64,000 nt of DNA from Clostridia bacterium (GCA_017450025.1 JAFSYJ010000016.1:5487-69486); one strand, 5' to 3'. Counted from the first letter of the stretch, positions 15,164 to 64,000 are shown. Notes: generated by a model from the letters alone, not told the origin. Numbers and translations: made by a program.

Positions 15164-15281
15164 ATAAAAATATAGACTTAAACGGTTATATATGATATAC
15201 TGTATACAGAACTTTAATTTTTAACTAAATTTTTACGGGAGGCGGAACGCTTGTTTCACCTTCGTCAGAATGGGGATTTTT

Positions 15282-16079
15282 ATGGGTGAAGTTATTGTTA
15301 TAACCTCCGGAAAGGGCGGCGTAGGCAAGACGACATCTGCCGCAAATATAGGCTGTGCGCTGGCAAAAGAGGGCAAAAAGGTTATGCTTCTTGATGCCGA
15401 TGTAGGGCTTCGGAATTTAGATATCATTATGGGGCTTGACAACAGCGTGGTTTTTGACTTTTCCGATGTTTTAGACGAAAATTGCAGATTGAGACAGGCG
15501 GTTGTCAGGGACAAAAGATTTGACGGACTATACTTTTTGGCGGCGTCGCAGACAAAGGACAAAAACGAGATAGACATCGAAAAGATGAAGATGTTGACAG
15601 ACGAGTTAAAAGAAAGCTACGACTATGTGATTATAGATTGCGCCGCAGGCATAGAACACGGGTTTCAGATGGCCTGCGAGGGCGCAGACAGGGCAATAGT
15701 GGTCGCAACGCCTGAGATCACATCTGTAAGAGACGCCGACAGGGTTCTTGCAAGGCTTGAGGTTTTAGGCAAAAAGGCAGAAATCGTGATAAACCGCGTA
15801 AAGCTGTCTGCCATAAGAAGGGGCGGCGCACTCGGGATAGACGAGATAATAGAGCTTTTGGCTGCCGATTTAATAGGAATAGTGCCTGACGACGACAGCA
15901 TAATCGCAGCGGCAAACAAGGGCGAACCTGCCGTTTTAAATAAGTCGAGCCGCGCAGGACAGGCATATACCAATATCGCAAAAAGAATTATGGGAGAAAA
16001 GGTCCCTGTTATGGATTTGGAGGACGATAGGTCGATTGGGTTTAAGCTGAAAAGGCTGTTTTCAAGAAAGGCAATTTAG
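15282..16079 (+). CDS. minD: Septum site-determining ATPase MinD
   Basis: Deviant Walker A VITSGKGGVGKTT and a C-terminal amphipathic membrane-targeting helix (GFKLKRLFSRK). The ATG at 15282 gives the canonical MGEVIVITSGKGG start. Confidence 0.9.
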   Translation: MGEVIVITSGKGGVGKTTSAANIGCALAKEGKKVMLLDADVGLRNLDIIMGLDNSVVFDFSDVLDENCRLRQAVVRDKRFDGLYFLAASQTKDKNEIDIEKMKMLTDELKESYDYVIIDCAAGIEHGFQMACEGADRAIVVATPEITSVRDADRVLARLEVLGKKAEIVINRVKLSAIRRGGALGIDEIIELLAADLIGIVPDDDSIIAAANKGEPAVLNKSSRAGQAYTNIAKRIMGEKVPVMDLEDDRSIGFKLKRLFSRKAI

Positions 16080-34155: not shown

Positions 34156-34244
34156 TTGTTTTTTGTAAAGTCGCGTGATATTATCGCTTAATCTATAAAA
34201 GCATTTTATATCATATGCAGAATGCCTGGCAAAGGAGGAACATA

Positions 34245-48317: not shown

Positions 48318-49835
48318 TTACTGTATAATAAAAAGGCTCAGTACAACATATACCGAGCCAAATAAAAGTGGTGCACCGACCGAGTTTATATCCGAACCTA
48401 TTTCCGATTTTTCTATTTCTTCAAATGGTATCGTTTGTGTCCCGTCCTTGTAATTAAATGTGATGATCATTTTATCATCATAGAGGTAGATGGCATTTAC
48501 AAAGCTGTCAATCAATCGCCTGCGATGGTCAAGGTGTTTGGTGTTAAATTTGCGGAAGCGTTCTACCCAGAAGATAATTTGTTCTTTGGTAAGTGTCGGC
48601 TTTGCCATTGCTTCTTTTATGATCTGAACAGACAACTCGTTCTTCCGTTCTTCTAACGCCTCAAGACGCTCTTTTGTGGAAGCGGTCAGAATGCCTTGCT
48701 CGATGGCACTCAGCATATTATCAATACTTTTCTGAACCTCCGCAAATTGCTTGTGCAAGAGTGGCAGAGCAATGTTTTCTTTCGATTGCAAATCTATTAT
48801 TGCATCGGCAAGTCGGTTTACTAACTCTTCATTAAAGATGACTTTTTGAATTTGCTCAATAACAAGGTTTTCTATCCATTCTTTTTTGACCGTCTTTTTG
48901 TCGCATCCGCGATGATTTTTCACACTGACACATTTATAATAACGATGTACCTTCATAGTATGGCTTGTGCCGCTTTCGCCAACCATAAGGCACTTGCATT
49001 TACCGCAGAACAGCTTTGTCGTAAGCAAATATTCATCCTCGGCTTTGTGCTTTGCGGGAGCTTTTTTGGTTTGTGCCATGCGCTTTTGTACTCTGTCGAA
49101 TAAATCCTTTGGAATGATTGCCGGAATGCCGCCCTCTATGAGAACATCCCTGTATTTGTATTCACCGATATATTTTCGGTTATGGAGCATACGCGTAACA
49201 CAGTTGATGTTTATTTTACCGCCACGCTTTGTGCGTACTCCCCGGATATTCATTTCATCGGTAATTTCACGCATTGTTGCACCATCTGCATAATGTTTAA
49301 ATGCATCAAGTACGATTGGGGCAGTTAACGGATCAATCTGAAAGCATTGATTGCTGTCGGTTGTATATCCGATAGGCAGATTCCCGCCGTTGTATTTGCA
49401 TTTTAAGGCGTTCTCCTTAAGACCTCGAATAACCTTTTCGGCAAGCTCAGCGGAATAATATTCCGCCATACCCTCAAGCATGGATTCAAGCAAAATTCCC
49501 TCTGGGTTATCCGAAATGATTTCAGTTGCCGATACGATCTTTACACCGTTTTTACGCAGAACACTTTTGTAGTGTGCCGAATCATAACGGTTGCGTGCGA
49601 AACGGTCAAGTTTCCAAACAATAATTGCTTCAAACTTTCCGCTTGCGCTGTCCTTGATCATTTTCTGAAAATCGGGGCGGTTATCTGTTTTGGCAGATAA
49701 CGCACGATCAATATATGTTCCGATAATCTGAAAATCATTTTTTACCGCAAATGCCTTACATTCACGAAGCTGACCGTCAATTGATTCCTCGCGTTGACTG
49801 TCGCTTGAATATCTTGCATAAATCACTGCATTCAT
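48318..49835 (-). CDS. Large serine recombinase (resolvase/invertase catalytic domain + recombinase domain + zinc-ribbon/coiled-coil)
   Basis: MNAVIYARYSSDSQREESIDGQ carries the catalytic Ser. Also present are VWKLDRFARN, the recombinase domain (NGGNLPIGY) and the Cys cluster CGKCKC...YYKC. RBS GAGGTGA lies upstream. Confidence 0.9.
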   Translation of the reverse strand: MNAVIYARYSSDSQREESIDGQLRECKAFAVKNDFQIIGTYIDRALSAKTDNRPDFQKMIKDSASGKFEAIIVWKLDRFARNRYDSAHYKSVLRKNGVKIVSATEIISDNPEGILLESMLEGMAEYYSAELAEKVIRGLKENALKCKYNGGNLPIGYTTDSNQCFQIDPLTAPIVLDAFKHYADGATMREITDEMNIRGVRTKRGGKININCVTRMLHNRKYIGEYKYRDVLIEGGIPAIIPKDLFDRVQKRMAQTKKAPAKHKAEDEYLLTTKLFCGKCKCLMVGESGTSHTMKVHRYYKCVSVKNHRGCDKKTVKKEWIENLVIEQIQKVIFNEELVNRLADAIIDLQSKENIALPLLHKQFAEVQKSIDNMLSAIEQGILTASTKERLEALEERKNELSVQIIKEAMAKPTLTKEQIIFWVERFRKFNTKHLDHRRRLIDSFVNAIYLYDDKMIITFNYKDGTQTIPFEEIEKSEIGSDINSVGAPLLFGSVYVVLSLFIIQ

Positions 49836-50199: not shown

Positions 50200-50272
50200 T
50201 CAGAATTATACCAGATTATTCTATACTTGTCAATAGAAAATAAACATTTTCGCTTATTTTTATTGATTTTGA

Positions 50273-50301
50273 GAAATGGTTGTGATAAAATGAGTATATT
50301 A
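50273..50301 (+). promoter_or_regulatory. Sigma-70-type promoter with an extended -10 for the XRE/Bro-N genes
   Basis: TTGATT (50273-50278), a 17 nt spacer ending in TGA, then TAAAAT (50296-50301). Confidence 0.5.
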
Positions 50302-50322
50302 AATTGTATTGGAGAGAAGAAA

Positions 50323-50862
50323 ATGGCGATTGGTGAAAGAATAAGATATATACGAAAATTAAGAAAATTAACACAAACCAGGCTCGGAGTAAAACTCGGA
50401 TTTCCGGAAAGCTCTGCCGAGGTCAGAATAGCACAGTATGAAACGGGCACTCGAACGCCGAAAGAGAATGGTATAAAAGTGATAGCGGATATTCTTGAAG
50501 TATCGCCTCTTGCTTTGAAAGTGCCGGACATTGACAGCAATTTGGGCTTAATGCACACATTTTTCGCTTTGGAAGATATGTACGGATTGGAGATAAAAGC
50601 GGAAGATGATAAATTGATATTTCAATTCAAGGATGAACGGAAGCTTGACCCGTCATTTCATCAAATGCTTTTTGCATGGGCGAAGCAAGCAGAAAAACTC
50701 AAAAACGGTGAGGTAACAAAAGAGGAGTATGACAAGTGGAGATATAACTATCCAAAATATGATAACTCGCAAATATTTGCGGAAGTTCCCTCACAAAAAA
50801 TAACAGATTATTTAGAAAAACAAAACGGCGCAAAGGAGGATTTAAAAAATGGATGCAAATGA
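50323..50862 (+). CDS. XRE family helix-turn-helix transcriptional regulator
   Basis: IGERIRYIRKLRKLTQTRLGVKLGF...IAQYETGTRTPKENGIKVIADILEVSPLAL is a Cro/C1-type HTH. The ATG is at 50323. Confidence 0.8.
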   Translation: MAIGERIRYIRKLRKLTQTRLGVKLGFPESSAEVRIAQYETGTRTPKENGIKVIADILEVSPLALKVPDIDSNLGLMHTFFALEDMYGLEIKAEDDKLIFQFKDERKLDPSFHQMLFAWAKQAEKLKNGEVTKEEYDKWRYNYPKYDNSQIFAEVPSQKITDYLEKQNGAKEDLKNGCK

Positions 50863-51721
50863 TAAAATTCAGTTATTTGAAAATCAGCAAATACGTACAG
50901 CATGGGATGAAGAAAAAGAGGAATGGTATTTTTCTGTAGTTGATGTTTGTGGTGTGTTAACAGATAGTGCAGATTATAATACTGCAAGAAAATATTGGAA
51001 TAAGCTAAAACAAAGATTAAACGATGAGGGCAGCCAGTTGGTGACAAATTGTCACCAACTGAAAATGAAATCTCCAAAAGACGGAAAGCGTTATAAAACA
51101 GATGTTGCAACCACAGAACAGCTTTTACGAATCATACAGTCAATCCCGTCACCGAAAGCTGAGCCGTTTAAACTTTGGCTTGCGGAGGTCGGCAGAGAAC
51201 GAATCGAAGAAACGATAGATCCCGAACTCATTATTGAACGCGCCCTTGAAACATATTTGAAAAAAGGTTATTCACGCGAATGGATCAATCAACGGTTGCA
51301 GGCAATTCAAGTTCGTAAGGAGCTTACCGATGAATGGCAGGACAGAGGAATTCAAAAAGGAATCGAATACGCAATTCTTACAGACGAGATAACCAAAGCA
51401 TGGTCGGGCATGACAACAAGGCAATACAAAAATCTAAAAGGTTTAAAGGAAGAAAATCTTCGCGACAACATGAGCACAACTGAGATTATTCTTAATATGC
51501 TTGCGGAAACATCAACAAAAGATATTTCAAAGAAGGAAGAACCAAATGGACTCAGCGAAAGCAAAAAGGTTGCAAAGCGCGGAGGCAATGTTGCGAATAT
51601 TGCGAGGAAAGCACTGGAAGCCGAAACAGGCGAATCGGTAATCACATCTGAAAATGCAGCTACATTAAATTCGGTTGTAACAAATCTGATTGAAGGTGCA
51701 AAAAACGACAAAGATGAATAA
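50849..51721 (+). CDS. Bro-N domain protein with a DinD-like (DNA damage-inducible protein D family) C-terminal region
   Basis: FENQQIRTAWDEEKEEWYFSVVDVCGVL...PKAEPFKLWLAEVG fits the Bro-N pattern. The C-terminus (KNLKGLKEENLRDNMSTTEIILNMLAE...) resembles DinD. RBS GGAGG lies upstream. Confidence 0.75.
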   Translation: MDANDKIQLFENQQIRTAWDEEKEEWYFSVVDVCGVLTDSADYNTARKYWNKLKQRLNDEGSQLVTNCHQLKMKSPKDGKRYKTDVATTEQLLRIIQSIPSPKAEPFKLWLAEVGRERIEETIDPELIIERALETYLKKGYSREWINQRLQAIQVRKELTDEWQDRGIQKGIEYAILTDEITKAWSGMTTRQYKNLKGLKEENLRDNMSTTEIILNMLAETSTKDISKKEEPNGLSESKKVAKRGGNVANIARKALEAETGESVITSENAATLNSVVTNLIEGAKNDKDE

Positions 51722-51740
51722 TATATAAAGTTTAACTGAG

Positions 51741-51768
51741 AGACAGGACAAGGAGCCTGTCTTTTTTT
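51741..51768 (+). terminator. Rho-independent terminator after the Bro-N gene
   Basis: AGACAGG - loop - CCTGTCT followed by TTTTTTT. Confidence 0.75.
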
Positions 51769-52412: not shown

Positions 52413-52601
52413 ATGGCGGAAGAAAAATTAATAATTGCTGCCAAAAAATATGGCGGCGAAAGTGCGGTAGTTTCTGCGCGTCTTCCTGTTGACCTGATTA
52501 AGCGTTTGGACGATATATGCGACATGACAGGAAGAACAAAAAATGAAGTTATTCAGATGTGTATAGAGTTCGCAGTAGAACGTATAGAAATTGAAAAGTA
52601 G
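52413..52601 (+). CDS. Ribbon-helix-helix (CopG/Arc/MetJ-type) DNA-binding protein
   Basis: 62 aa. SARLPVDLIKRLDDICDMTGRTKNEVIQMCIEFAV shows the beta-strand then helix-helix pattern typical of RHH repressors/antitoxins. Confidence 0.8.
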   Translation: MAEEKLIIAAKKYGGESAVVSARLPVDLIKRLDDICDMTGRTKNEVIQMCIEFAVERIEIEK

Positions 52602-52614
52602 CGGAGGTATTCAT

Positions 52615-53721
52615 ATGTTTAAATTAGCAGATGTAATCAAGTATGAAGGTGACAATTCAACTTTTGTGTGGAAACATCATTGTGAGGATTTTAATACAAC
52701 ATCTCAGTTAATAGTACATGAATCACAGGAAGCCGTGTTTTTTGCAAACGGTCAGGCTTTGGACTTGTTTGAGACGGGAAGGTATACGCTAACAACACAA
52801 AACATTCCGCTTATAAGAAATGTTATAAATATTCCTACGGGCGGAAAGACGCCTTTCCATTGTGAAGTTTATTTTGTAAATAAAACTCACCAAATGGCTA
52901 TTAAATGGGGTACGGACAGTCAGGTTCAATATATGGAACCAAAGTATCACTTCCCTTTGCAAATCGGATTGTCCGGAGAAATGATTTTATCGGTTGATGA
53001 TTCGAGAAAACTTCTTGTTTATATAGTCGGCACGGAACAAAAATTGACGCAAACAGCATTAGTACAAAAATTCCGTGCATTGCTAATGTCAAAAATTAAA
53101 CCATACATCGGAAAAACAATGCAGGAAGCATCGTATTCAATATTTGAAACCGATTCGCATATGGATGAATTATCTTCCGATTTACATAGAATGCTGATTC
53201 CGGATTTTAAAGCATACGGGCTTAAACTTGAAAACTTCTTTGTTACCAATATTGCAAAACCTGATGGAGAACCCGCATACGAAAAATTCAAAGATTTGCA
53301 CATTCGTCAGTATTCAGATGTTGCGGAAGCTCAGTTAAAACAACAAGTAAGCGTTATAGATGAAGAAACGGAAAAGAAACGCAGAATTATAGAGGCTGAA
53401 GGAATTGCCGAAAAAAGAAAAATTGAGGGTTATAGTTATGCCCAGGAAAGAGGCTTTGATGTTGCGGAAAAAGTTGCAGATAATGAAGGCGTGGGTAACT
53501 TTTCAAGTCTCGGCATCGGTCTCGGAATGATGGGCGGTGTTGCAGGAACTGTTGGAGGAATGACCGGAGAGGCAATAAAAAATACGGAAGGGCAAAAAAG
53601 TCCGGACAGTATGGAGGAGTTCAAACAAAAGCTCGAAAAACTGATGCTTATGAAGGAAATGGGCGCCTTGTCAGATGAAGAATTCAACGAACAGAAGAAA
53701 AGATTATTAGAAAGTATTTAA
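52615..53721 (+). CDS. SPFH (Band 7, YdjI-like / Band_7_1) domain protein with a Gly/Met-rich linker and a C-terminal SHOCT domain
   Basis: N-terminus MFKLADVIKYEGDNSTFVWKHHCEDFNTTSQLIVHESQEAVFFANGQ...GRYTLTTQNIP is typical of the Band_7_1 family. A coiled-coil follows. The C-terminus MEEFKQKLEKLMLMKEMGALSDEEFNEQKKRLLESI is SHOCT-like. RBS GGAGG lies upstream. Confidence 0.85.
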   Translation: MFKLADVIKYEGDNSTFVWKHHCEDFNTTSQLIVHESQEAVFFANGQALDLFETGRYTLTTQNIPLIRNVINIPTGGKTPFHCEVYFVNKTHQMAIKWGTDSQVQYMEPKYHFPLQIGLSGEMILSVDDSRKLLVYIVGTEQKLTQTALVQKFRALLMSKIKPYIGKTMQEASYSIFETDSHMDELSSDLHRMLIPDFKAYGLKLENFFVTNIAKPDGEPAYEKFKDLHIRQYSDVAEAQLKQQVSVIDEETEKKRRIIEAEGIAEKRKIEGYSYAQERGFDVAEKVADNEGVGNFSSLGIGLGMMGGVAGTVGGMTGEAIKNTEGQKSPDSMEEFKQKLEKLMLMKEMGALSDEEFNEQKKRLLESI

Positions 53722-53738
53722 CTTAGGAGGAATTGGTT

Positions 53739-55250
53739 ATGGGATTTACGAAAAATAAAGCATGGAGTATTGTTATATCACTATTAGCACTTATCCTTTT
53801 GCATGTTGTCGCATTTATTCTTCCCGTATACCACGGTATACATTTTTGGATGGGATACAGTTTTGCTGTTTTTGCAAATATAGTGCTGGTTGTAGCTGCT
53901 ATTATTACGCTTAATAAACCAAATATAAATAAAACATTCCTGGGGCTTCCTGCTTTGAGCGTGGCATGGATTTATTTTATTATTCAAACAGGATTATCAA
54001 TAAAGCAAATGACAGATTTTGATTTTCCGTATTTTGCGGGGATAATTATTAATTCAGCTTTAGCGACATTTGTTATTATTACTCTTATTTTAACAAATAT
54101 GGCAGTAAAAGAAATTGAAAAAGTCGAAGAAAAAACAGCCGAAAAAGTATTTTATATTAAAAATTTAAAAACTGATATTGAACTATTAGAAAGCGAAAAT
54201 TCAGAGGTTTTGTCAAAGCTTAAAGACCTGAAAGATACGGTTAGATTCAGTGATCCGATGAGCCATTCACAGCTTACCCCGCTGGAAAATAAAATCACCA
54301 ATAAGTTTAATATTCTCAAAGAAAACATCGACAATCCAAGCATTGCTTTAACGCTCTGCGATGAAATGCAGAAGCTGCTAGCGGAAAGGAACAAAAAGTG
54401 CAGATTGTTAAAAGGAGTGCCGGAGTCCACTCTGGAAAAAGACAATACGGGCATTAATATTTTATCTACCGCTTTGGCGGTGCTTAGTGTTGTGGCTATA
54501 TTCACACTCATACTGACATTTGTTATTATTCCAAACAACAAGTATAATACTGCGAACGCTTTATTTCAAAATGAAAATTATGAAGAGGCACTCTTTGCTT
54601 TTGAAAAGCTCGGCAACTATAAGGATAGCAAATTAAAAACAGACTTAATAAAAGAAAAATTATATGAAGAAAAGTATTTGCAAGCTGAAAATTGCTACAA
54701 GACGCAAAAGTATGTAGAAGCTATGCGCTTATACAGCGAGCTTGGAGATTATAAAAATTCAAAGGACAGAATTGAACAAATCTGCAATAAGTTTGCTCAG
54801 GGCGGAGAAATTTACTTTGGCGTGTATGAAGAAAATCCCGTTGCATGGAAAATTTTAAAAACAGAAAAAAGCAGAATGCTTTTAATCACGCAAAATCCTG
54901 TAGAAACACTTGCATTTAATGACGAACTTAAAAATATAACATATGAAACATCCTCTATAAGAAACTGGCTGAATGATGATTTTCTGACTGAATTTTCTGA
55001 TGATCAAAGAGGCAGAATCCTTAAGAGTGACGAAGGCATGAATGATGATATATTCCTTTTGACAGAAGAACAATATAATGAATATTCAAAAAATCTTGAC
55101 CTAACCACATATAGTGATTGGTGGCTGAGGACTAAAACCGATGCCGGAATGATGTATGTATCTGGAGAAAGCGGTGAAGTAAATACATATGGAGAAAGTG
55201 TCGTAAGAAATATGGGCGTTCGTCCGTGTGTTTGGATAAGCTTAAGATAG
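53739..55250 (+). CDS. Polytopic membrane protein: four N-terminal TM helices, coiled-coil, fifth TM, two GxYK(D/N)S helical motifs, C-terminal DUF6273-like domain
   Basis: Hydrophobic segments lie at the N-terminus and at INILSTALAVLSVVAIFTLILTFVII. The motifs are FEKLGNYKDSK and YSELGDYKNSK. The C-terminus W-KILK...SSIRNWLNDDFL...DIFLLTEEQ...DWWLRT...GVRPCVWISL fits the DUF6273 pattern. RBS AGGAGG lies 8 nt upstream of the ATG at 53739. Confidence 0.75.
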   Translation: MGFTKNKAWSIVISLLALILLHVVAFILPVYHGIHFWMGYSFAVFANIVLVVAAIITLNKPNINKTFLGLPALSVAWIYFIIQTGLSIKQMTDFDFPYFAGIIINSALATFVIITLILTNMAVKEIEKVEEKTAEKVFYIKNLKTDIELLESENSEVLSKLKDLKDTVRFSDPMSHSQLTPLENKITNKFNILKENIDNPSIALTLCDEMQKLLAERNKKCRLLKGVPESTLEKDNTGINILSTALAVLSVVAIFTLILTFVIIPNNKYNTANALFQNENYEEALFAFEKLGNYKDSKLKTDLIKEKLYEEKYLQAENCYKTQKYVEAMRLYSELGDYKNSKDRIEQICNKFAQGGEIYFGVYEENPVAWKILKTEKSRMLLITQNPVETLAFNDELKNITYETSSIRNWLNDDFLTEFSDDQRGRILKSDEGMNDDIFLLTEEQYNEYSKNLDLTTYSDWWLRTKTDAGMMYVSGESGEVNTYGESVVRNMGVRPCVWISLR

Positions 55251-55268
55251 AATGGAGGCACATATAAG

Positions 55269-56021
55269 GTGATATCCAAATGTAAAGTATGTGGCGGAAA
55301 TATTAATGCAAAAGAAGATGCAAAATATGTTATATGTGAATATTGCAGTACAACATATGAAACAGACAACGGCAAAATTGATATTAATGTAAGTTGTAAT
55401 GTTAATAATACTGCAAAAAAGAAATCATTGTTGCCTTTATTGATATGTTTGTTTTTGCTGGTGTTTGTCATTGTAGGGGGACTTATTGTTATGAGTCTTA
55501 TGAAGATTAACACCTCTTTGGAAAAACCGGAAGATAATGATGTATCCTATGTTTCGGAAATTTATGAAAAAAATTCGGAATTACAAAGAAACGAAAACAA
55601 AAATACCATTGAAGAAAAAAACAATAAACCTGAATTTGTTTATATTGAAAATGTCGAAGAACAAGTTAAACTGATACGCAAAAAATACTACAGCACACAA
55701 AACGACCTCGGAGCGCTCAATGTTACACAAATCGGCAAATATAAAATTTATAAAAATTCTGATGGTGATATTAAAAAGGTTGATTTTGCATTGAATTCTA
55801 ATGCATATGATGTTTGCTATTATTATGAAAATGGAGAATTGTATTTTGTTTTTGCTTTTGACGGAAAAAAGGAAAATAGATTTTATATTTATAAAAATCA
55901 GATTATAAGATGGATAAATGAAGCCGGTACTGTGTTTGATAATGAATATAACAACCCTGAATTGCAGAAGTGGCAAAAAATAATTTTCGATGAAGCAAAA
56001 CTTTTGAAGGAGAATATATGA
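55269..56021 (+). CDS. Zinc-ribbon single-pass membrane protein (no TIR) with an extracytoplasmic C-terminal domain
   Basis: The GTG start aligns with the paralog N-termini (MISKCKVCGG...ICEYCSTTY is a CxxC..CxxC ribbon). KKK precedes the TM segment LLPLLICLFLLVFVIVGGLIVMSL, giving an N-in topology. RBS GGAGG lies upstream. Confidence 0.7.
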   Translation: MISKCKVCGGNINAKEDAKYVICEYCSTTYETDNGKIDINVSCNVNNTAKKKSLLPLLICLFLLVFVIVGGLIVMSLMKINTSLEKPEDNDVSYVSEIYEKNSELQRNENKNTIEEKNNKPEFVYIENVEEQVKLIRKKYYSTQNDLGALNVTQIGKYKIYKNSDGDIKKVDFALNSNAYDVCYYYENGELYFVFAFDGKKENRFYIYKNQIIRWINEAGTVFDNEYNNPELQKWQKIIFDEAKLLKENI

Positions 56022-58057
56022 TATTTAAATGTAAAATCTGCGGTGGTAGTTTAGATGTACATATCGGAGAAAGAACGGCAGTATGTGAGTACTGTGGTGT
56101 GGAACAGACAATACCGAGCTTTATTGATATAAAAGCGCAGGAGATATATAATATAGCAAGCAATTATCTTGCGCACAATGAATTTGATAAAGCGGAAAAT
56201 CTGTATGCACAGATTCTAATTGACAACAAATCCGATGCGGACGCGTACTGGAATATTCTTATGTGCCGCTACGGTGTTACATATGTAAAAGACCCTGCAA
56301 GCGGAAAGTATATACCAACGTGCAACAGAACTTTATATGCCCCTATTTTCAATGACGAAAACTACAAAAACGCTATTAAGTATGCAGATGAAAAACAAAT
56401 GGCATTATTTGAAGCAAACGCAAAAATCATTGACGATATACAAAAGGGTATTCTTTCCGTTTCAAGCAAAGAAAAGCCGTTTGATATTTTCATATCGTAC
56501 AAGGAAACGGATGCGAACGGCGCAAGAACAAAGGACAGTATTGCGGCGCAGGATTTGTATGAGAAACTGACGGCAGAAGGTTACAAGGTATTCTTCTCAC
56601 GTATTACCCTTGAAGACAAAATTGGAACGGAGTATGAACCATACATCTATGCCGCCCTTGCTTCAAGCAAGGTAATGATAACCGTTTCATCATCAAGAGC
56701 AAATCTCGAATCGGTATGGGTAAAAAATGAGTGGTCAAGGTTTTTATCATTCATGGGAAAAGACAGCGGGAAAACACTTGTTCCGCTTTATTTTGATATG
56801 GACAAGTCTGACCTGCCGGATGATTTTGCACATTTCCCATCTTACGATATGAAAGTTGACGGTTTTGAACAAGATTTAATAAGGGGTATTAAAAAATTGA
56901 CACCTCTACCTGTCATGCTTTTGGAGAAACGGAAGAAAAGAAATAAGATATTAAAGCGTATAGGACTTGCCGGTGCAGCTTGCGCGGTTATCGGTGTTAT
57001 ATGCGCTATTCCGTGGTTTATGAAGCTGCCGCAATATAACGCCGCAATGCAGCTTTATTATGACAAGAACTACCCCAAAGCGACATGGGCATTTGCAGAT
57101 TTAGGAAGTTACAGAAATTCAGAGAAAATGAAGGAAAAGTGTGAGCTTAGCTGGAGGAAGAGTTTGGCGAATGTTGTAGCAACAAAATATGCTTCGTTAG
57201 AAGGCGATTCATACTATGTTTCACAGCAAGGCAGTATCGAAATTTTTGATTCAATTAACGGTTTCGACAGCAATGAAAATAAGAATTCAAATTTGCAGAC
57301 CGATGTAAAATATGTATCCATTGCTGACGGTGGACACACATCTGTTTATGCGCTCAGAGAAGACGGATTTGTTTCTAATTCTAAGGAAAACAACGATTTA
57401 CCGGATGATTGGAAAAACATTGTTCAGATTTCACCAAAGTTTTACAGTACTTCTGTGGCATTAACCAAAGAAGGTAAAATGCTATACGGAAACACACATA
57501 ATTCAAAGTTTTATTCAGGAAACGATGATTGGCTGACTGATGTTAGCACATGGAATAATATTGTTTCTTTCGAGTATGAGATATTGGACACCGAAGGTGG
57601 TATAGAATCTGCGGCTATTGTAGGAATAAAATCAGATGGATCGTTATGCGGCGTATATACAAGTAGTTTTAACAGTGCTTCAATTTCACAAGCTGTAAAA
57701 CAGTTTTCTGATGTGAAAAGCGTTGACATTGATCTTTATGACGGTATACGAATAACAGCTTTAACAAATCACGGCACATTACAAAAGTATGAGCATGACA
57801 GATTCAGCGAAGAAATAGCGGAAAACACTTCAGATATATTTATAGATTTTTATCCTGAAGATGCAATATATAAGCTTTCTAATCGCGGTGAATTGTTTGG
57901 CTGTACGGGGCATGTTTTAACAGAAGACATCGTTAAGTTATCGTCTGATTTTTGTATAAGTCGTTCAGGTAGCATATATAGAATTTTCAATAATGAAGTT
58001 CAAAAGTATTCCGAAAAAACAGTTGTATATGACGAATGGGTAGAAAGGTTGAATTAG
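56018..58057 (+). CDS. Type-A zinc-ribbon / helical / TIR-domain single-pass membrane protein with a repeat (propeller-like) ectodomain, copy A1
   Basis: C4 ribbon MIFKCKICGG...CEYCG. TIR_2-like domain FDIFISYKETDANGARTKDS...GYKVFFSRITLEDKIGTEYEPYIYAALASSKVMITVSSS..LESVWVKNEWSRFL. KRKKRNKILKR precedes the TM segment IGLAGAACAVIGVICAIPWF. The C-terminal region has about six repeats of the form W-x-(N/D)-I-V-x-(I/F) ... G-x-x-x-D-G. The start overlaps the upstream stop (ATGA). Confidence 0.85.
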   Translation: MIFKCKICGGSLDVHIGERTAVCEYCGVEQTIPSFIDIKAQEIYNIASNYLAHNEFDKAENLYAQILIDNKSDADAYWNILMCRYGVTYVKDPASGKYIPTCNRTLYAPIFNDENYKNAIKYADEKQMALFEANAKIIDDIQKGILSVSSKEKPFDIFISYKETDANGARTKDSIAAQDLYEKLTAEGYKVFFSRITLEDKIGTEYEPYIYAALASSKVMITVSSSRANLESVWVKNEWSRFLSFMGKDSGKTLVPLYFDMDKSDLPDDFAHFPSYDMKVDGFEQDLIRGIKKLTPLPVMLLEKRKKRNKILKRIGLAGAACAVIGVICAIPWFMKLPQYNAAMQLYYDKNYPKATWAFADLGSYRNSEKMKEKCELSWRKSLANVVATKYASLEGDSYYVSQQGSIEIFDSINGFDSNENKNSNLQTDVKYVSIADGGHTSVYALREDGFVSNSKENNDLPDDWKNIVQISPKFYSTSVALTKEGKMLYGNTHNSKFYSGNDDWLTDVSTWNNIVSFEYEILDTEGGIESAAIVGIKSDGSLCGVYTSSFNSASISQAVKQFSDVKSVDIDLYDGIRITALTNHGTLQKYEHDRFSEEIAENTSDIFIDFYPEDAIYKLSNRGELFGCTGHVLTEDIVKLSSDFCISRSGSIYRIFNNEVQKYSEKTVVYDEWVERLN

Positions 58058-58060
58058 ATT

Positions 58061-59644
58061 ATGAAATGCTTAATATGCGGCGGCGTTTTAAAATATGAAA
58101 ACGGTTTATACATATGCTTGAACTGTGGAGTGAAACAAAAGATTTCTTCTTTTTTTGAGGACACAGAGGTTTTTATATGTTATGAGGAAAGCGATGAGCA
58201 AGGCAGAAGAACGAAAGACAGTATTATAGCACAAGACATATATAATAAACTGCAAAACGCCAACATAAGTTCTTTTTTTCAGAGAATATCTGCCGCCGAT
58301 TTGGTTGGTGAAAATATGGAACTTGCAGTTCAAACCGCAATTACATGCGCTAAAGCAATTATTTTATGTGCAAGCTCAAAAGAGAATTTCTCAAAACTAC
58401 TTTATAAATACAAAAATGAATTTACAAATAAAAAAGTAATTCCTGTTTATACTCTTTTAAACGCATCGGATATTCCGAAAGAAATAAGCAGATTTCAAGC
58501 TGTAAACTATGATAATGTGGGTTCATCAACGGATTTAATAAAGAGCCTTCTTGTTTTTTTAAATAAAAACAGCGAAATAGATGTTAATAGTTTTAAAGAC
58601 AAGCTAATAAAAAAAAGAAAGCGTTTACTAATTTCATTTTTTGCCTTGTTTATTGCTATTGCTGCTTTAATATCATATATAGTATTTGGCACACCGTATA
58701 TATTAAAAGCCAAAAAATACAGTTATGCCGAAAAACTATTTGATAACGCCAATTATACAGAAGCTGTCGATATTCTTACACAACTTTCCGATTATAAGAA
58801 TTCACGAAATATGCTAAAAAGCATTTATGATCTATACGAAGGGTATTATTATGATGAATCATCTGATTCGACACTTCATTTAGTTATTGAGAATGATTCC
58901 CGTGCAAATATAGAATTTGAAAGAAAATATCCCGATAATACCGTAATGAAGTTTTCTGAAAAAGGAGAGATACACGGAAAACAAATGTCATTTAACTTTA
59001 CCGACAACTTTGGGCAAGACGGAGTAGCCGACATTCAAATAGAAAACACCTCATTAAAATTAAAAATAAAATCAAAAGAAAGCTTGGAGTTGGCTTTTGA
59101 TTTAAATTCAAAATCAGACGCTCCGTTGAAGGAAAAAATATCAAAGGACACTTTGCTTTCATGGCTAAAAACAAGAACAACAATCAGTGATATAAAGGCA
59201 CTCGGTTATGAAATAGAATATGTAACTTCATGGGGATCAGAAGAAGGAACTAACAGATTTTATAAGATATCTGATACGGATATCCGGTTTCTAACAAGCG
59301 CATACGATCCGACAAAGGAAGATTTATGGTCAGCTCCAATTCAAACAGATGTATATAATAATCCTTTTATTATGGCAATTGAAGCAAAAGCAGAACTGAT
59401 GTGCCCGGAAAGAATAGGTCAAAAAGATGACAGTTACATAGATGATGGTATTAAGTATTATCCAAACGGAGTGCCGTATAATGGCTCTGCTCAAACTGAA
59501 ATAAATCATGATACCCCTGTTTTGGTAGCATCTGATAAGCTGTTAAGCAGAAATGAACTTCTTTTACCGGAAAAATGGTATTATACAGATGATAATTCTG
59601 CGGAAACGGAAAATGATCAAAGCAGTTTCAGTTTATATGATTAG
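58061..59644 (+). CDS. Type-B zinc-ribbon / divergent TIR-like single-pass membrane protein with an unrelated ectodomain, copy B1
   Basis: Ribbon MKCLICGG...CLNCG. The TIR-like N-half EVFICYEESDEQGRRTKDSIIAQDIYNKL...FFQRISA is homologous to the type-A TIR. KKRKR precedes the TM segment LLISFFALFIAIAALISYIVFG. The juxtamembrane motif is LTQLSDYKNSR. Confidence 0.7.
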   Translation: MKCLICGGVLKYENGLYICLNCGVKQKISSFFEDTEVFICYEESDEQGRRTKDSIIAQDIYNKLQNANISSFFQRISAADLVGENMELAVQTAITCAKAIILCASSKENFSKLLYKYKNEFTNKKVIPVYTLLNASDIPKEISRFQAVNYDNVGSSTDLIKSLLVFLNKNSEIDVNSFKDKLIKKRKRLLISFFALFIAIAALISYIVFGTPYILKAKKYSYAEKLFDNANYTEAVDILTQLSDYKNSRNMLKSIYDLYEGYYYDESSDSTLHLVIENDSRANIEFERKYPDNTVMKFSEKGEIHGKQMSFNFTDNFGQDGVADIQIENTSLKLKIKSKESLELAFDLNSKSDAPLKEKISKDTLLSWLKTRTTISDIKALGYEIEYVTSWGSEEGTNRFYKISDTDIRFLTSAYDPTKEDLWSAPIQTDVYNNPFIMAIEAKAELMCPERIGQKDDSYIDDGIKYYPNGVPYNGSAQTEINHDTPVLVASDKLLSRNELLLPEKWYYTDDNSAETENDQSSFSLYD

Positions 59645-59656
59645 AGGTAAAAACAA

Positions 59657-61633
59657 ATGATATTCAAATGTAAAATATGCGGTGGCAGTTTAGATGTAAA
59701 TATAGGCGAAAGAACTGCCATTTGTGAATACTGCGGTGTGGAGCAGACAATTCCGAGCTTTATTGATATTAAAGCACAGGAAATTTATAATATTGCAAAT
59801 AATTATCTTGCTCATAATGAGTTCGATAAGGCGGAAAATCTGTATGCACAAATACTAATTGACAATAAATCCGATGCGGATGCGTATTGGAATATCCTTA
59901 TGTGCCGATATGGTGTTACATATGTAAAAGACCCTGCAACCGAGAAGTATATTCCCACTTGTAATAGGACACTCTATGCGCCTATCTTTAATGACGAGAA
60001 TTACAAAAATGCCATAAAATATGCTGATGAAAAACAAAGGGTATTATTTGAAGCAAACGCCAGAATCATTGACGATATTCAAAAAGGTATTCTTTCGGTA
60101 TCACGAAAAGAAAAGCCGTTTGATATATTTATCTCGTACAAAGAAACAGATGCAAACGGTGCAAGAACAAAGGATAGTATTACAGCGCAGGATTTATATG
60201 AAAAGCTGACAGCCGAAGGTTACAAAGTATTTTTCTCACGTATTACACTTGAAGATAAAATTGGAACAGAATATGAACCGTATATATATGCCGCTTTAGC
60301 TTCAAGCAAGGTAATGATTACCGTTTCATCTTCAAAAGAAAATCTTGAATCGGTTTGGGTAAAAAATGAGTGGTCAAGATTTTTATCATTCATGGGAAAA
60401 GACAGCGAGAAAACACTTGTTCCACTTTACATTGATATGGACAAATCTGACATGCCCGATGATTTTGTACATATGCCGTCATACGATATGAAAACTGACG
60501 GCTTTGAACAGGATTTAATCAGAGGTATCAAAAAATTGATACCTCTGCCTGTAATGCTTTTGGAAAGACGAAAAAAGCGCAATAAAATTTTAAAAAGAGT
60601 CGGCATAGCCGCTGCCGTTTGTGCTGTTATATGTGTTATATGCGCTATTCCTTGGTTTATGAAACTGCCCGACTATAACGCTGCAATGCAGCTTTACTAT
60701 GACAAAAACTACCCCGAAGCAACCTGGGCATTTGCTGATTTGGGGCAATACAGAAATTCGGATAAAATGAAGGAAAAGTGCGAGCTTAGTTGGAGAAAAA
60801 GCTTGGCAAGTATTGTCGCTGTACCGTATGAATTGTCTTATTCGGACAATATTTATTATATTACTGATTTGGGTTCGGTTAAACAATATAATAATAACGG
60901 AAAAATCGACAATTCTGTTAACGATCTCTCGATAAACGAGCACGGAAGAATAGCATCGCTGGCATGGGGGTATGAGCCACATGCGCTATATGAGGACGGA
61001 ACGGCAATGTTAGGACAAAGCGAAGAAGAATGGAAAGATATTGTTCAAATAGTTGGCCCTCAACCCATTGGATTGCGGTCAGACGGCAGAGTTATTTATT
61101 CAAAGACCAAGCTGTCCACTGCTACCCAGAATGAAGATTGGTTAAAGGATACAGAAAATTGGACTAACATAGTTTCATTGGAGTATTACGGTCAGCCCGG
61201 CGGCGCTCAATTCTTAATAGGAGTTACGAGCAACGGTACGGTTTGCAAAGTTCAAACAGAACACGCTGGGGAGTTATTTGTTGATGATTTTAAAAATGTT
61301 AAAACATGCTTAATGACTGATTTTAATATTTGCGCCATAACATATGACGATAAGATAATCTGTGAAAATAACGGTTCTAATATAGAATATAAAACTGATA
61401 AAATAAAGGCTGCAGAAATACACGGAGCATTTTATGACAAGTCAAAACACTATTTAGAATTGTTGAAAAACGGTGAATTGTATATAGACGACAAATATGT
61501 TTTAGGTGACATATGTTATTTAAAAAACGGCTATGCCTTATCAAAAACAGGAGTATTATACAGTTATGATTTATATACGAACACATTTACAGAGTTTAAG
61601 AAAAATGTTTTGGTAAATGACGAATGGAAATAG
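59657..61633 (+). CDS. Type-A zinc-ribbon / helical / TIR-domain single-pass membrane protein, copy A2 (ectodomain strongly diverged from A1)
   Basis: The first ~384 residues are collinear with A1, with about 29 substitutions and no indels by hand count. TIR motif ...VWVKNEWSRFL is intact. After SWRKSLA the sequence is only weakly alignable to A1 through WKDIVQI / WTNIVSLEY-type repeat motifs. Confidence 0.85.
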   Translation: MIFKCKICGGSLDVNIGERTAICEYCGVEQTIPSFIDIKAQEIYNIANNYLAHNEFDKAENLYAQILIDNKSDADAYWNILMCRYGVTYVKDPATEKYIPTCNRTLYAPIFNDENYKNAIKYADEKQRVLFEANARIIDDIQKGILSVSRKEKPFDIFISYKETDANGARTKDSITAQDLYEKLTAEGYKVFFSRITLEDKIGTEYEPYIYAALASSKVMITVSSSKENLESVWVKNEWSRFLSFMGKDSEKTLVPLYIDMDKSDMPDDFVHMPSYDMKTDGFEQDLIRGIKKLIPLPVMLLERRKKRNKILKRVGIAAAVCAVICVICAIPWFMKLPDYNAAMQLYYDKNYPEATWAFADLGQYRNSDKMKEKCELSWRKSLASIVAVPYELSYSDNIYYITDLGSVKQYNNNGKIDNSVNDLSINEHGRIASLAWGYEPHALYEDGTAMLGQSEEEWKDIVQIVGPQPIGLRSDGRVIYSKTKLSTATQNEDWLKDTENWTNIVSLEYYGQPGGAQFLIGVTSNGTVCKVQTEHAGELFVDDFKNVKTCLMTDFNICAITYDDKIICENNGSNIEYKTDKIKAAEIHGAFYDKSKHYLELLKNGELYIDDKYVLGDICYLKNGYALSKTGVLYSYDLYTNTFTEFKKNVLVNDEWK

Positions 61634-61648
61634 GAGGTGCAAATTACT

Positions 61649-63562
61649 ATGAATTGTAAAAATTGCGGAGGCAAGTTATCAGCCGGTGAAAACGGATTCC
61701 AATGCGAAAGCTGTCAAAGCAGATTTGAATTTGCCGATTTTTATGAAAATGAGGAGGTCTATATTTCGTATATTGAAACGGATGATTCCGGCCGCAGAAC
61801 AAAGGACAGTGTTATTGCTCAAGAAATATACCGCAAATTAGAAGGGACAAAAATAAACACCTTTTTTCAGCGTATTTCCGCCGGCAACGCCACGGACGAC
61901 CTTGTGCAAAGAATAAGTAGCATCGCAGAGGAAAAATCAAAAATTGTTTTAATTGTCGCTACATCGGCGGAAAATTTCATAAAGCTCTGGAATAAGCATC
62001 AAAGTTCGGCATCAACAAAAACAGTTCTTCCCGTATTCTCCGATATGTCGGCATCGGCATTGCCGCAAGAAATCAAGAACACGCAAGCGCTTAATTATGA
62101 TGCTATCGGTTCGGACAAGGACTTAATAAAAAACATACTTCAAATATTAGGCCGTGAAGGTGATAAAGACCTTTTTGAAAACCAAAAATCTTTAAACAAG
62201 CGAAAGAAGAAAACGGCAATTATGGTACTTCTGATTGCGTTGATTGGTATTTTAGCATTATCAATTACATGTAAACCGGGTGTTTTAAATAAATTTAAAA
62301 GCAATTCTAACGAAGTAATATATGAAAAAGCAGTCAAATTTGATGAAAGCAAAGACTATGTTCAGGCTATTAAATCATTTTGCAGTATCCCAGGATACAA
62401 AGATTCTGATACAATGCTTATGGATATTTATAAGTTATATAACGGAGTGTATACAGACGAAAACACTAACCTTACAGTAAGGCTTGATATAAGCAGTATT
62501 TATTCTGCAAACGTCAAAATAATAACGGACTTGAATAAAAGCTCTATGTCTGTATTAAACGAAAACGCCGGTATTAATGAAAACTTAATACACAGCAGTT
62601 ATACAGATACTAACGGCGTTTCAGGCAACTTTGAGATAGTTCTCGAAAACGATGGTATACAAGTTGTCCTGAATAATGTTGATGTTTTTATTCCTTTTGA
62701 GAATAAGACCGAAAAAGACTTGGATTTGGAAATAAACCATGAGCAAATACTCACGTGGTTGGATGGAAAAACTGCTGTAAATAAACTTGTTGCTTTAGGC
62801 TATGATATAGAAATTCAAGATCAGAACACATATTCAATAAAAAACACCGATATATCAATTGTTGGTAATTCAGAAGGAATAGAAAGCATTACCGGACCGG
62901 CAGATATTATATGTCCCGAATATGCCGGTCGCGAAGCCACACCATACTATACAGACGAATACTTGTACTACCCAAGCGAATCTTTATACTGGAATAAGCC
63001 CGACACAATCGGAACTATCGCAAGCGACTCTACCGTAACTGTAGCAAGCAAGCTTTCTTTGGGTGTAGACCGGTGGGATCAAGAAATAAATACAATCAAG
63101 GACTCTCTCCGCAAGGACGAGGATGATAACGGAAGTGATTCAGATTTTGTTTTCTTGCCAATTGGCGATTTGAAATTTAGGATGACCGCCCGGGAAGTTC
63201 AGCGCATTTTAGGCGACCCGGAGAAAAAATCGGAAGAACTTGGTCAGGGGGCAACCGGTACACCTTTGCAAAACTGGGAATATCCCTCATTAGGCATTTC
63301 ACTTTCATTCGTGCGCAATCAAAACGAACAAACAGTTTCAATTATCAGGATAACAGCGCCATGCAGTTTTACAACACCTCAGGGTATAAAAATCGGTAGC
63401 AGTCGCTCGGAAGTAATAAATGCATACAAAGGAAAAATAGAGTTTGAAGAAACGGCACAAAGTGCCGACACGATTATAGTTGGAAGTGTATACGGAGGGA
63501 CTATATTTACTATTGACGGCGATACCGTATCGCAAATATTTGTGGGTGCAGGTGCAGAGTAA
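61649..63562 (+). CDS. Type-B zinc-ribbon / divergent TIR-like single-pass membrane protein, copy B2 (longer ectodomain)
   Basis: Ribbon MNCKNCGG...CESC. TIR-like EVYISYIETDDSGRRTKDSVIAQEIYRKL...FFQRISA. KRKKK precedes the TM segment TAIMVLLIALIGILALSI. The motif is IPGYKDSD. The ATG at 61649 has AGGAGG 11 nt upstream; the track start at 61637 (GTG) lies inside that RBS. It carries about 110 extra C-terminal residues relative to B1. Confidence 0.7.
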   Translation: MNCKNCGGKLSAGENGFQCESCQSRFEFADFYENEEVYISYIETDDSGRRTKDSVIAQEIYRKLEGTKINTFFQRISAGNATDDLVQRISSIAEEKSKIVLIVATSAENFIKLWNKHQSSASTKTVLPVFSDMSASALPQEIKNTQALNYDAIGSDKDLIKNILQILGREGDKDLFENQKSLNKRKKKTAIMVLLIALIGILALSITCKPGVLNKFKSNSNEVIYEKAVKFDESKDYVQAIKSFCSIPGYKDSDTMLMDIYKLYNGVYTDENTNLTVRLDISSIYSANVKIITDLNKSSMSVLNENAGINENLIHSSYTDTNGVSGNFEIVLENDGIQVVLNNVDVFIPFENKTEKDLDLEINHEQILTWLDGKTAVNKLVALGYDIEIQDQNTYSIKNTDISIVGNSEGIESITGPADIICPEYAGREATPYYTDEYLYYPSESLYWNKPDTIGTIASDSTVTVASKLSLGVDRWDQEINTIKDSLRKDEDDNGSDSDFVFLPIGDLKFRMTAREVQRILGDPEKKSEELGQGATGTPLQNWEYPSLGISLSFVRNQNEQTVSIIRITAPCSFTTPQGIKIGSSRSEVINAYKGKIEFEETAQSADTIIVGSVYGGTIFTIDGDTVSQIFVGAGAE

Positions 63563-63763: not shown

Positions 63764-63796
63764 CGTCCCGTCCAAAAATGGATTAGCTTAAGATAG
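63764..63796 (+). pseudogene. Remnant of the 3' end of a second DUF6273-type gene
   Basis: Reads ...RPVQKWISLR*, matching the C-terminus GVRPCVWISLR* of the 53739..55250 gene. The following spacer (AGCTTAAGATAGAA...GGAGGCACA) also matches the 55238-55265 junction. Confidence 0.45.
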
Positions 63797-63815
63797 AAAT
63801 AAGCGGAGGCACAAT

Positions 63816-63884
63816 ATGTTATTCAAATGCAAAATCTGCGGCGGCAGTTTAGACGTACTTATTGAAGAAAGAACAGCGGTATGA
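63816..63884 (+). pseudogene. Truncated 5' fragment of a third type-A zinc-ribbon/TIR gene
   Basis: GGAGG RBS, then MLFKCKICGGSLDVLIEERTAV followed by TGA. This is nearly identical to the A1/A2 N-termini but loses the second CxxC. A possible out-of-frame echo (EAVYTNLWQDYF versus AQEIYNIASNYL) follows. Confidence 0.6.
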
Positions 63885-64000
63885 GGCAGTATATACAAAT
63901 CTGTGGCAAGATTATTTCTAACCGTTGCTCATTGCCCCTGGGCTGGACAAGTTGCTACCGTTAATCAAATGATTGAATCGAATGTGAGGAATACACAATG

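Follow-up and report, generated by a model that had tools for sequence, protein, structure and literature searches.

A 64,000-nt stretch of DNA from a Clostridia bacterium (GCA_017450025.1 JAFSYJ010000016.1:5487-69486; "the window" below means this whole stretch) carries an alternating array of four genes, A1-B1-A2-B2, whose products are predicted membrane proteins with a cytoplasmic TIR domain and an extracellular domain (ectodomain). The array forms the variable terminal part of an operon that is conserved and horizontally mobile and that consists of RHH, SPFH and U2 genes followed by one or two A-B units. Conservation of the A genes drops sharply at about codon 384, and this switch is a recurrent recombination boundary and not the outcome of fast point mutation. 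The A 5' half is homogenised within the genome, or is a homology arm for cassette exchange. The segments that follow it, each composed of an A ectodomain and the adjoining B gene, are old discrete types that are swapped between elements, each under purifying selection. Taken together, this anatomy and this evolutionary mechanism are in our judgement highly probable.

The four open reading frames (ORFs) are listed below, with positions counted from the first letter of the window. A1 and B1 form unit 1, and A2 and B2 form unit 2.

56018-58057, + strand: A1, 679 aa
58061-59644, + strand: B1, 527 aa
59657-61633, + strand: A2, 658 aa
61637-63562, + strand: B2, 641 aa with GTG as the start; the public gene caller begins at the ATG at 61649, which gives 637 aa

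Gene order and sizes agree with an initial annotation of this DNA (679, 527, 658 and about 637 aa). The coordinates given there for the element (56018-63562) were too narrow, since the array is part of an RHH-SPFH-U2 operon on a mobile island. The spacing is that of operon genes, with gaps of 3-12 nt or overlaps. The same four-gene array is present in three independent metagenome contigs from separate samples (L001-L003), which differ from the window by 0-1 nt per segment, and A-B-A-B arrays were also found in loci L005, L007, L010, L066, and L067. The pattern is far beyond chance.

Anatomy of the A and B proteins

An AlphaFold2 (AF2) model of A1 (mean pLDDT, the per-residue confidence score, 85.9) divides the protein as follows, in residues.

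1-31: four-stranded Zn ribbon
38-151: helical/hairpin domain
157-294: TIR domain, with E238
298-335: one long helix with the transmembrane (TM) segment (about 314-335; hydropathy peak 317-335), KRKKRNKILKR standing before the TM segment
337-382: extracellular three-helix stalk, conserved
387-670: beta-propeller, pLDDT mostly >90

A and B each have one TM helix preceded by a Lys/Arg cluster, and neither has a signal peptide ahead of the cytoplasmic Zn ribbon. The TIR domain of A scored above the Pfam TIR_2 (PF13676) cutoff of 28 bits (A1 49.1 bits, A2 49.4 bits), and its nearest structural matches by Foldseek were NADase TIRs (AbTir, TM-score 0.77; SARM1, about 0.7). The motif SVWVKNEWSRF is invariant in the A family. 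E238 is invariant in 72 close relatives, and invariant or nearly so in samples of the wider superfamily. A phmmer alignment pairs it with the Glu in the SKWCLMEL motif of the flax L6 TIR, the catalytic glutamate of plant TIR NADases. The A TIR appears to keep the catalytic Glu of the W..E helix, and NADase competence is predicted.

Residues 35-152 of A1 and A2, between the Zn ribbon and the TIR (window 56120-56473 and 59759-60112), make up the helical/hairpin domain. In the A1/A2 comparison omega (dN/dS) is about 0.02 over residues 1-150, with this domain the most constrained part, and Cys83, Cys102 and a PTCNRT motif within it are invariant. This uncharacterised domain belongs to no Pfam family and has no counterpart in B, and its presence defines the superfamily.

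For the A ectodomain the initial annotation had guessed an RCC1/propeller-like fold. Pfam gave no direct match at E<=0.01. The AF2 model is a propeller, Foldseek matched it to generic propellers (BamB, WD40, tectonin), and the A-ectodomain profile aligned by hhalign to RCC1_2-positive ectodomains of the superfamily (98.5%, E 2.4e-15, 206 columns). As modelled, the ectodomain is a divergent RCC1-type beta-propeller, and the guess is borne out.

The AF2 model of B1 (pLDDT 82.5) shows a related plan, again in residues.

1-27: Zn ribbon
37-166: TIR domain, degenerate
170-210: TM helix
212-257: helical stalk
261-347: eight-stranded up-and-down beta-barrel
362-495: alpha/beta domain

B2, the cassette partner of A2, has the B1 design and an extra C-terminal domain (residues about 521-641). 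Both B proteins fall under the TIR_2 cutoff (B1 22.4 bits, B2 17.9 bits), and phmmer relates the B TIR to the A TIR at 4e-18. The structures nearest to the B1 TIR by Foldseek were the adaptor TIRs MAL/TIRAP, MyD88, and TRR-2 (TM-score 0.65-0.69), and small barrels were matched as well. No meaningful viral structural relatives of B were found in BFVD. B appears to be a divergent TIR paralog. An 8-residue deletion lies at the position of the catalytic Glu in the W..E helix of B1, B2 and all sampled B homologs, so the B TIR cannot be catalytic in the usual way.

A and B have in common an unusual insert after the first TIR strand (G.RTKDS.IAQ), which is possibly a contact for a ligand or a partner. 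The 62-nt stretch that encodes it within Y.E.D..G.RTKDS.IAQ occurs at 56492-56553, 58175-58236, 60131-60192, and 61763-61824. Its DNA identity across all four genes is 71-87% (repeat D2), although elsewhere the A and B proteins share only about 27-31% of their residues.

That A and B work as a pair had been proposed from their alternation. In all 32 testable cases an A gene is directly followed by a B gene (32/32), A keeps E238, and every B has the 8-residue deletion, which together support a working pair. Distances between A ectodomains and distances between B ectodomains also co-vary (rho 0.38, Mantel p 0.0005; 29 non-redundant A-B units), in keeping with the proposal. In two Lachnospiraceae/Clostridiales metagenome-assembled genomes (MAGs), L011 (7992-11193) and L012 (7993-12235), A is split into 126 + 540 aa and B into 193 + 490 aa, through either operon decay or shared assembly errors.

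The A proteins belong to a large superfamily. A phmmer search with A1 residues 1-300 against 1.84 billion cluster representatives returned 3,693 clusters (50% identity) with the A cytoplasmic module at E<=1e-30. The best 150 of these matches are 43-94% identical (mostly about 45-57%) over residues 1-295 and range from 311 to 2,374 aa in total length. A TM helix is predicted after the TIR in 131 of 148 representatives. In a sample of 51 C-termini we identified TPR linkers (38), DUF6273 (14), BspA-type leucine-rich repeats (LRR; 11), RCC1 repeats (6), and LRR_8 (5), and also Flg_new, Lcl_C, and Fn3-like domains. Judged from sequence, members of the superfamily are built of a Zn-ribbon-helical-TIR module in the cytoplasm, then a TM helix, then a binding domain outside the cell that can be exchanged. 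Public annotations name the family members 'TIR domain-containing protein' or 'hypothetical' only.

Recombination at the stalk/propeller junction

The segments of the A genes that were compared, with the relic of a third A gene, are as follows.

56018-57169, + strand: A1 conserved 5' half, codons 1-384 (Pfam TIR_2, AF2 model, omega 0.038)
57170-58057, + strand: A1 ectodomain, predicted divergent RCC1_2-type beta-propeller, cassette type 1 (AF2 pLDDT >90, Foldseek, hhalign)
59657-60808, + strand: A2 conserved 5' half, codons 1-384 (85.2% nt and 92.4% aa identity to A1; direct repeat D1)
60809-61633, + strand: A2 ectodomain, predicted RCC1_2-type propeller of another cassette type than that of A1 (ortholog in L066 unit a, 51% identity)
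63778-63885, + strand: relic of a third A gene, consisting of the upstream/ribosome-binding-site region and 22 codons (MLFKCKICGGSLDVLIEERTAV*)

Residues 1-384 of A1 and A2 align without a gap and differ by exactly 29 substitutions, and the first 24 codons differ by 9 synonymous and 2 non-synonymous changes; both hand counts of the initial annotation were exact. By the Nei-Gojobori method codons 1-384 have a proportion of synonymous differences (pS) of 0.577, dS 1.10, dN 0.042, and omega 0.038. Past codon 384 (SWRKSLA, then N or S; nt 57170 in A1 and 60809 in A2) the proteins are barely alignable, as had been noted, with identity falling to about 25% and dN at 0.80. The codon-aware profile is not uniform: the low omega of codons 1-384 is followed by collapse. 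The dN/dS of the A1/A2 ectodomains is uninformative, with dS saturated and the alignment unreliable at 25% identity, and orthologous cassette pairs of other loci were used instead. B1 and B2 are diverged throughout (32% identity overall), most of all in the ectodomain (about 29%, against about 43% in the cytoplasmic part). For A1 and A2 of this window, dS 1.1 with omega 0.04 fits the purifying selection, and not recent gene conversion, that had been read from the synonymous changes. The analysis also supports the coupling of a constrained signalling module in the cytoplasm to an ectodomain that is highly diverse. The switch had been placed at the membrane, and this part has to be revised: the conserved half extends about 50 residues past the membrane, which puts the switch at the junction between the stalk (337-382) and the propeller.

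One way to arrive at such a profile would be divergence in place, in which the whole A-B cassette was duplicated in tandem and the ectodomains and B genes then diverged by positive, diversifying point mutation while the A cytoplasmic half was held. The sharpness of the profile and the contrast in omega (0.04 against about 0.4) fit this model, and with the N-half dS of 1.1 as a clock an ectodomain dN of 0.8 is within reach of near-neutral evolution. It is contradicted by the relationships of the segments. When the 29 non-redundant A-B units were cut into A-cyt, A-ecto, B-cyt, and B-ecto and all pairs compared, A-cyt and A-ecto distances, from the two halves of one gene, were not significantly correlated (rho 0.07, Mantel p = 0.21), and the segments have largely independent histories. 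The nearest A-cyt to that of A1 is A2 (0.94; next best 0.85). From unit 1, unit 2 ranks 1st of 28 in A-cyt, and 24th in A-ecto, 20th in B-cyt, and 21st in B-ecto. Many foreign B proteins are closer to B1 (at best 60% identity) than B2 is (32%). The A2-B2 cassette type has an ortholog in L066 (A-ecto 51%; L066 Ba against B2, 52% in the cytoplasmic part and 51% in the ectodomain). The array had been described as a duplicated two-gene cassette; by these rankings and the L066 ortholog only the A 5' halves are sisters.

In sister loci the boundary recurs with more recent exchange. The A 5' halves of these loci are 92-98% identical in DNA, with the A ectodomains and B genes at 30-40%. In the A/A pair of L010 the N-half has a pS of 0.075 (about 98% nt identity), with codons 61-300 identical at the nucleotide level, whereas synonymous change has reached saturation in the ectodomain (pS 0.80) and in B (pS 0.68). 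Identity in this pair collapses at codon ~380, matching the boundary in the window, and its two cassettes are related to different genomes, unit 1 to L005 and unit 2 to L006 (A-ecto 81%). Within-locus nucleotide identity of the A N-halves is 97.9% in L067 and 91.6% in L066. Such recent conversion tracts with the same boundary are not what divergence in place predicts.

The initial annotation had proposed a comparison of orthologous loci, and L067 provides it. Its backbone resembles that of the window (SPFH 94% aa identity, 83% nt over 3.1 kb, A N-halves about 85-86% nt), and its A ectodomains (33-40%) and B genes (27-52%) are of unrelated types, so that ectodomain and B segments have been swapped, not mutated, on a shared backbone. 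L014 and L018 have cytoplasmic parts at 95% and 93% and ectodomains at 45% and 60%. The reverse discordance was also observed: the N-halves of P0024 and P0070 are 80% identical and their C-halves 100%, and L028 and L029 have an ectodomain pS of 0.24 and an N-half pS of 0.52. Where ectodomains of the same type could be compared, omega was 0.115 (L010 unit 2 vs. L006) and 0.19 (L028 vs. L029). With ortholog ectodomain dN/dS of 0.1-0.2, and no ectodomain variation among the near-identical strains L001-L003, the diversifying pressure that had been suggested does not act as rapid divergence. Divergence in place is largely refuted, and we hold it to be very improbable.

Exchange at a fixed junction is the explanation that we retain, and in the window itself the last event is old. 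The A1/A2 N-half pS of 0.58 is below the values to the next nearest genomes (0.73-0.81) and about equal to the divergence from the L067 copies, which dates the last homogenisation or cassette acquisition roughly to the split from the L067 lineage. The relic at 63778-63885 (direct repeat family D3) is 91.5% identical by blastn to both A-gene starts of L067 and, standing after B2, is the scar of a cassette loss at the array end.

Two other sources of variation were considered and rejected. Hypermutation by a diversity-generating retroelement does not fit: there is no reverse transcriptase domain in the locus genes scanned, L001-L003 are nearly invariant, and the only long repeats are the A 5' halves. 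For a shufflon or invertible cassettes, the only repeats are direct (D1, D3), and such inverted pairs as occur do not exceed chance, being short and AT-rich with a complementarity of about 75%.

The conserved operon and its mobile surroundings

A scan of one genome per species, with domain-level annotation of every ORF in the loci found, yielded 62 loci. All are from MAGs of gut or rumen Clostridia, spread over many families, except the isolate Gallibacter intestinalis and two 'Victivallales' bins. The A-like genes in L054 and L057 (JAZNXT01 contigs) come from a MAG labelled Victivallales, outside Bacillota, which is due to either horizontal transfer or a binning error. Related loci have a conserved order of SPFH/Band_7_1, U2, and then A-B once or twice, and an SPFH gene is present in 32 of the 44 loci with enough flank to judge. 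In the window the genes upstream of A1 are the following.

52413-52601, + strand: RHH (CopG-type) protein, 62 aa, opening the conserved operon (Pfam RHH_1 24.4 bits vs. cutoff 20.5)
52615-53721 (alternative start 52591), + strand: SPFH/Band_7_1 protein with a Gly-rich segment and a C-terminal SHOCT (Pfam matches)
53733-55250, + strand: U2, multi-TM protein with 4-5 TM segments (Pfam DUF6273 52 bits, TPR_2; TM prediction)
55269-56021, + strand: U1, 250 aa, with Zn ribbon, single TM segment and ectodomain (ORF and TM prediction)

The 62-aa RHH gene is first in the operon in the window, L066, and L067, and its product is a likely regulator. The SPFH protein matches Band_7_1 (PF13421) at 132.4 bits against a cutoff of 24 and has no TM helix by hydropathy. 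U2 directly follows SPFH in related loci, either in a long form with an extracellular DUF6273 domain or in a short form of about 235 aa. Its parts are a cytoplasmic helical segment, extracellular TPR-like juxtamembrane repeats and the C-type-lectin-like DUF6273 domain. DUF6273 has a C-type-lectin-like fold and is a target of diversity-generating retroelements in receptor-binding proteins of gut phages (PMC10743442). The slot between U2 and the first A is variable: it holds U1 in the window strain only and a 346-aa HNH protein in L066 (4958-5998), and is empty in L067. U1 is a lineage-specific occupant of this slot. In L006 the A-B pair is followed immediately (13921-15780) by another SPFH gene, which is divergent and codes for 382 aa, and by a U2 gene of the short form (236 aa), which shows that the SPFH-U2 core can also be duplicated.

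The operon of the window lies in a low-GC island. The GC content, about 0.47 up to roughly 46 kb, is about 0.35 beyond that point, and the island starts after a glycosyltransferase gene ending at 46626, the last of the housekeeping genes. The remaining island features upstream of the operon are given below.

48318-49835, - strand: large serine recombinase (Pfam Resolvase, Recombinase, Zn_ribbon_recom), marking the left part of the low-GC mobile island
50227-50862: helix-turn-helix (HTH) gene preceding the Bro-N gene (Pfam HTH_3)
50849-51721, + strand: Bro-N domain protein (Pfam Bro-N 50 bits)

The HTH and Bro-N genes are island genes that are not conserved alongside the operon in other loci, and a terminator-like hairpin stands 3' of the Bro-N gene (51738-51765). 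No promoter is claimed, since a promoter scan gave 57 candidates against 53.8 expected, which is not above chance.

At other loci the neighbours of the operon include a MobA/MobL relaxase with a tyrosine integrase (L066), or TnpV and IS200 and then a kinase-dCTP-deaminase gene and a methyltransferase (L067). Other flanks hold tyrosine integrases (L023, L027, and L029), a PDDEXK transposase (L016), Fic/DOC (L017), and AbiEii (L006). Housekeeping genes lie outside these mobility and defence flanks. An XerC/D-like tyrosine recombinase of about 270-280 aa adjoins the operon on the same strand in L023 (5898-6740), L027 (5930-6769), L029 (3050-3889), and L066 (13887-14690), and this small recombinase may mobilise the operon as a compact unit.

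In the window strain the array is followed by two genes (203 aa, Cys-rich, and 397 aa) at L001 17981-19832, just past the 3' end of the window, which stops at the ATG of the first of them. Searches of Pfam, NCBIfam and PADLOC matched neither gene. A 2,094-aa ORF (34215-40499) in the chromosomal part of the window, with a weak CarboxypepD_reg match as its only Pfam match, probably encodes a giant surface protein; it is unrelated to the array.

Possible function and likeness to known systems

We propose that A and B would assemble as a heteromeric transmembrane receptor, with cognate ectodomains that detect a cue at the outer face of the membrane, most likely a component of a phage or other invader, or envelope damage caused by one. 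Clustering driven by the ligand would gather the A TIR domains, with the dead TIR of B as a scaffold or brake. TIR assembly would then switch on NAD+ cleavage, by which NAD+ is depleted or a signal nucleotide produced, and this output would arrest the cell or block the invader. SPFH and U2 may organise or restrain the receptors in a membrane microdomain. Concerted evolution of the A cytoplasmic half would ensure that the A paralogs still fit one another as well as the one set of SPFH and U2, and the [A-ecto + B] cassettes would supply alternative specificities. As a compromise between the firmer anatomy and evolution and the less certain function, we assign the explanation as a whole a probability of roughly 0.55. 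For a defence/NADase function of the A-B operon as such we would give somewhat less than even odds.

Several observations weigh against this proposal. A-B contact, NADase activity, and phage defence are all predictions from sequences and models, and the assignment of E238 as the catalytic Glu is based on a marginal phmmer alignment (E ~0.005), the motif and fold similarity, not on residue-level superposition. PADLOC and NCBIfam models gave weak, TIR-level matches only: ThsB matched at E 4.5e-4 to 1.9e-3 and ThcB4 of NCBIfam at 27 bits vs. a cutoff of 220, far below family cutoffs. No downstream effector domain (SIR2, SLOG, Macro, SLATT etc.) is present in any operon gene, so that signalling in the manner of Thoeris is not indicated. 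The thick wall of a Gram-positive cell covers the ectodomains and so restricts their possible contacts, and the SPFH partner is compatible with a role in envelope stress too. A tblastn search with A1[1-384] against INPHARED phages and PLSDB plasmids gave no match, and the link to mobile elements thus rests on about a dozen metagenomic loci.

Among TIR-based anti-phage systems (ThsB, AbTir, and the TIR-APAZ of SPARTA) the A protein finds its closest likeness in the TIR_2 match above threshold, the W..E motif and the AbTir/SARM1 fold, and the A-B operon in its carriage on mobile elements, in some loci beside defence or toxin-antitoxin genes. It differs in that the A TIR is membrane-anchored, is joined to a large sensor outside the cell and has a dead TIR paralog as its partner, and in that A-B is linked to SPFH and a multi-TM lectin-like protein, with no ThsA-type effector. 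Thoeris types I-XI have been described in a 2025 preprint, and the present system is not among them. Membership of Thoeris was rejected, the combination of a ThsB-type TIR with a signal-activated effector (ThsA or other) being absent from the operon. The searchable literature, including a 2025 systematic survey of TIR signalling systems, yielded no account of the operon, nor of any bacterial TIR receptor tethered to the membrane and partnered with SPFH, and literature on SPFH with TIR, membrane-anchored bacterial TIR, Toll-like receptor (TLR)-like bacterial proteins, and DUF6273 did not describe the system.

The SPFH gene raises the alternative of an envelope-stress or membrane-maintenance module like PspA-YdjGHI, with the TIRs as mere oligomerisation scaffolds, the ectodomains monitoring the cell wall, and no immunity. 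In B. subtilis the soluble SPFH protein YdjI is recruited by the membrane proteins YdjG and YdjH (PMC8581546, PMC11237479). The window operon likewise encodes a Band_7_1 SPFH protein without a TM helix together with single-pass membrane proteins bearing a Zn ribbon, like YdjG, and the B TIR resembles adaptor TIRs. However, no PspA or TPM-domain (YdjH-like) gene was found in the window operon or related loci, the ectodomains are of other kinds (NTF2-like in YdjG), TIR domains are present, and the locus is mobile, patchily distributed and polymorphic. Cassette polymorphism this extreme is unexpected for housekeeping sensing, and the near-invariance of the predicted catalytic Glu of A across superfamily samples does not fit a mere scaffold. 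We consider such a module unlikely. Homology of the operon to B. subtilis pspA-ydjGHI was rejected, only the SPFH family and the theme of a Zn ribbon with a TM segment being in common. The 'Tir' of the phage shock protein (PSP) paper is a CesT/Tir chaperone and unrelated.

The evolutionary pattern itself invites another comparison. CdiA-CT/CdiI and Rhs arrays are polymorphic cassette loci with orphan modules, and the likeness, in evolutionary dynamics only, extends to a 5' region conserved up to a sharp junction motif, a 3' region that varies and is inherited together with the adjacent gene, tandem arrays, truncated relics, and exchange by homologous recombination. The A-B array could then serve polymorphic recognition between cells or between elements, as in kin discrimination, surface or entry exclusion on behalf of the mobile element, or contact-dependent signalling, with A-ecto and B-ecto a cognate pair swapped in the manner of CdiA-CT/immunity or Rhs cassettes. 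The junction, the tandem arrays ending in a truncated relic and the carriage on mobilisable elements are all in its favour. A and B, however, both sit in one membrane beneath the wall and have no toxin, immunity or secretion domain, what varies in them are binding folds anchored in the membrane (propeller, barrel, LRR, lectin) and not toxins, and the TIR with its predicted catalytic Glu faces the producer's own cytoplasm. This alternative seems slightly less plausible still than the envelope-stress module.

The receptor proposal, to which we return, resembles Toll-like and interleukin-1 (IL-1) receptors in design. Like them, A has an extracellular binding domain, a single TM segment and a cytoplasmic TIR, and some members of the superfamily have LRR ectodomains. 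The A-B unit is probably a heteromer of two TIR-bearing chains, as are the heterodimers of the IL-1 receptor (IL-1R) family with accessory proteins (PMC7075850). The topology of A is reversed, however, with an N-terminal TIR and a C-terminal ectodomain, its TIR looks enzymatic and not purely adaptor-recruiting, and it has a Zn ribbon and an extra conserved helical domain. The likeness is best taken as analogy, not membership, homology appearing limited to the TIR fold.

We place the A-B operon within TIR-based conflict systems, with a real chance that it represents a new class of envelope-sensing immunity. To our knowledge, known bacterial TIR systems sense infection inside the cell; if the proposal holds, bacterial immunity would also include sensing at the envelope, by a TIR enzyme coupled to a sensor outside the cell together with a dead-TIR partner and an SPFH scaffold, and a bacterial system would have the receptor logic of Toll-like and IL-1 receptors. 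A bolder possibility, which we rate as doubtful, is that these are true prokaryotic transmembrane TIR receptors, a very large, undescribed class of immune sensors (about 3,700 clusters) that would detect invaders at the outer face through an SPFH-organised heteromer of an enzymatic and a dead TIR with interchangeable LRR, propeller or lectin ectodomains. Such receptors would be a bacterial counterpart of TLR/IL-1R signalling, possibly informative on its origin. The family is abundant in Clostridia of the human and animal gut and is carried on mobile elements, so that phage-host dynamics and gene flow in the gut microbiome could be affected by it. Irrespective of function, one gene here shows both concerted evolution of a signalling module and exchange of sensor cassettes at a fixed domain junction, and the locus yields many natural chimeras that mark the module boundary.

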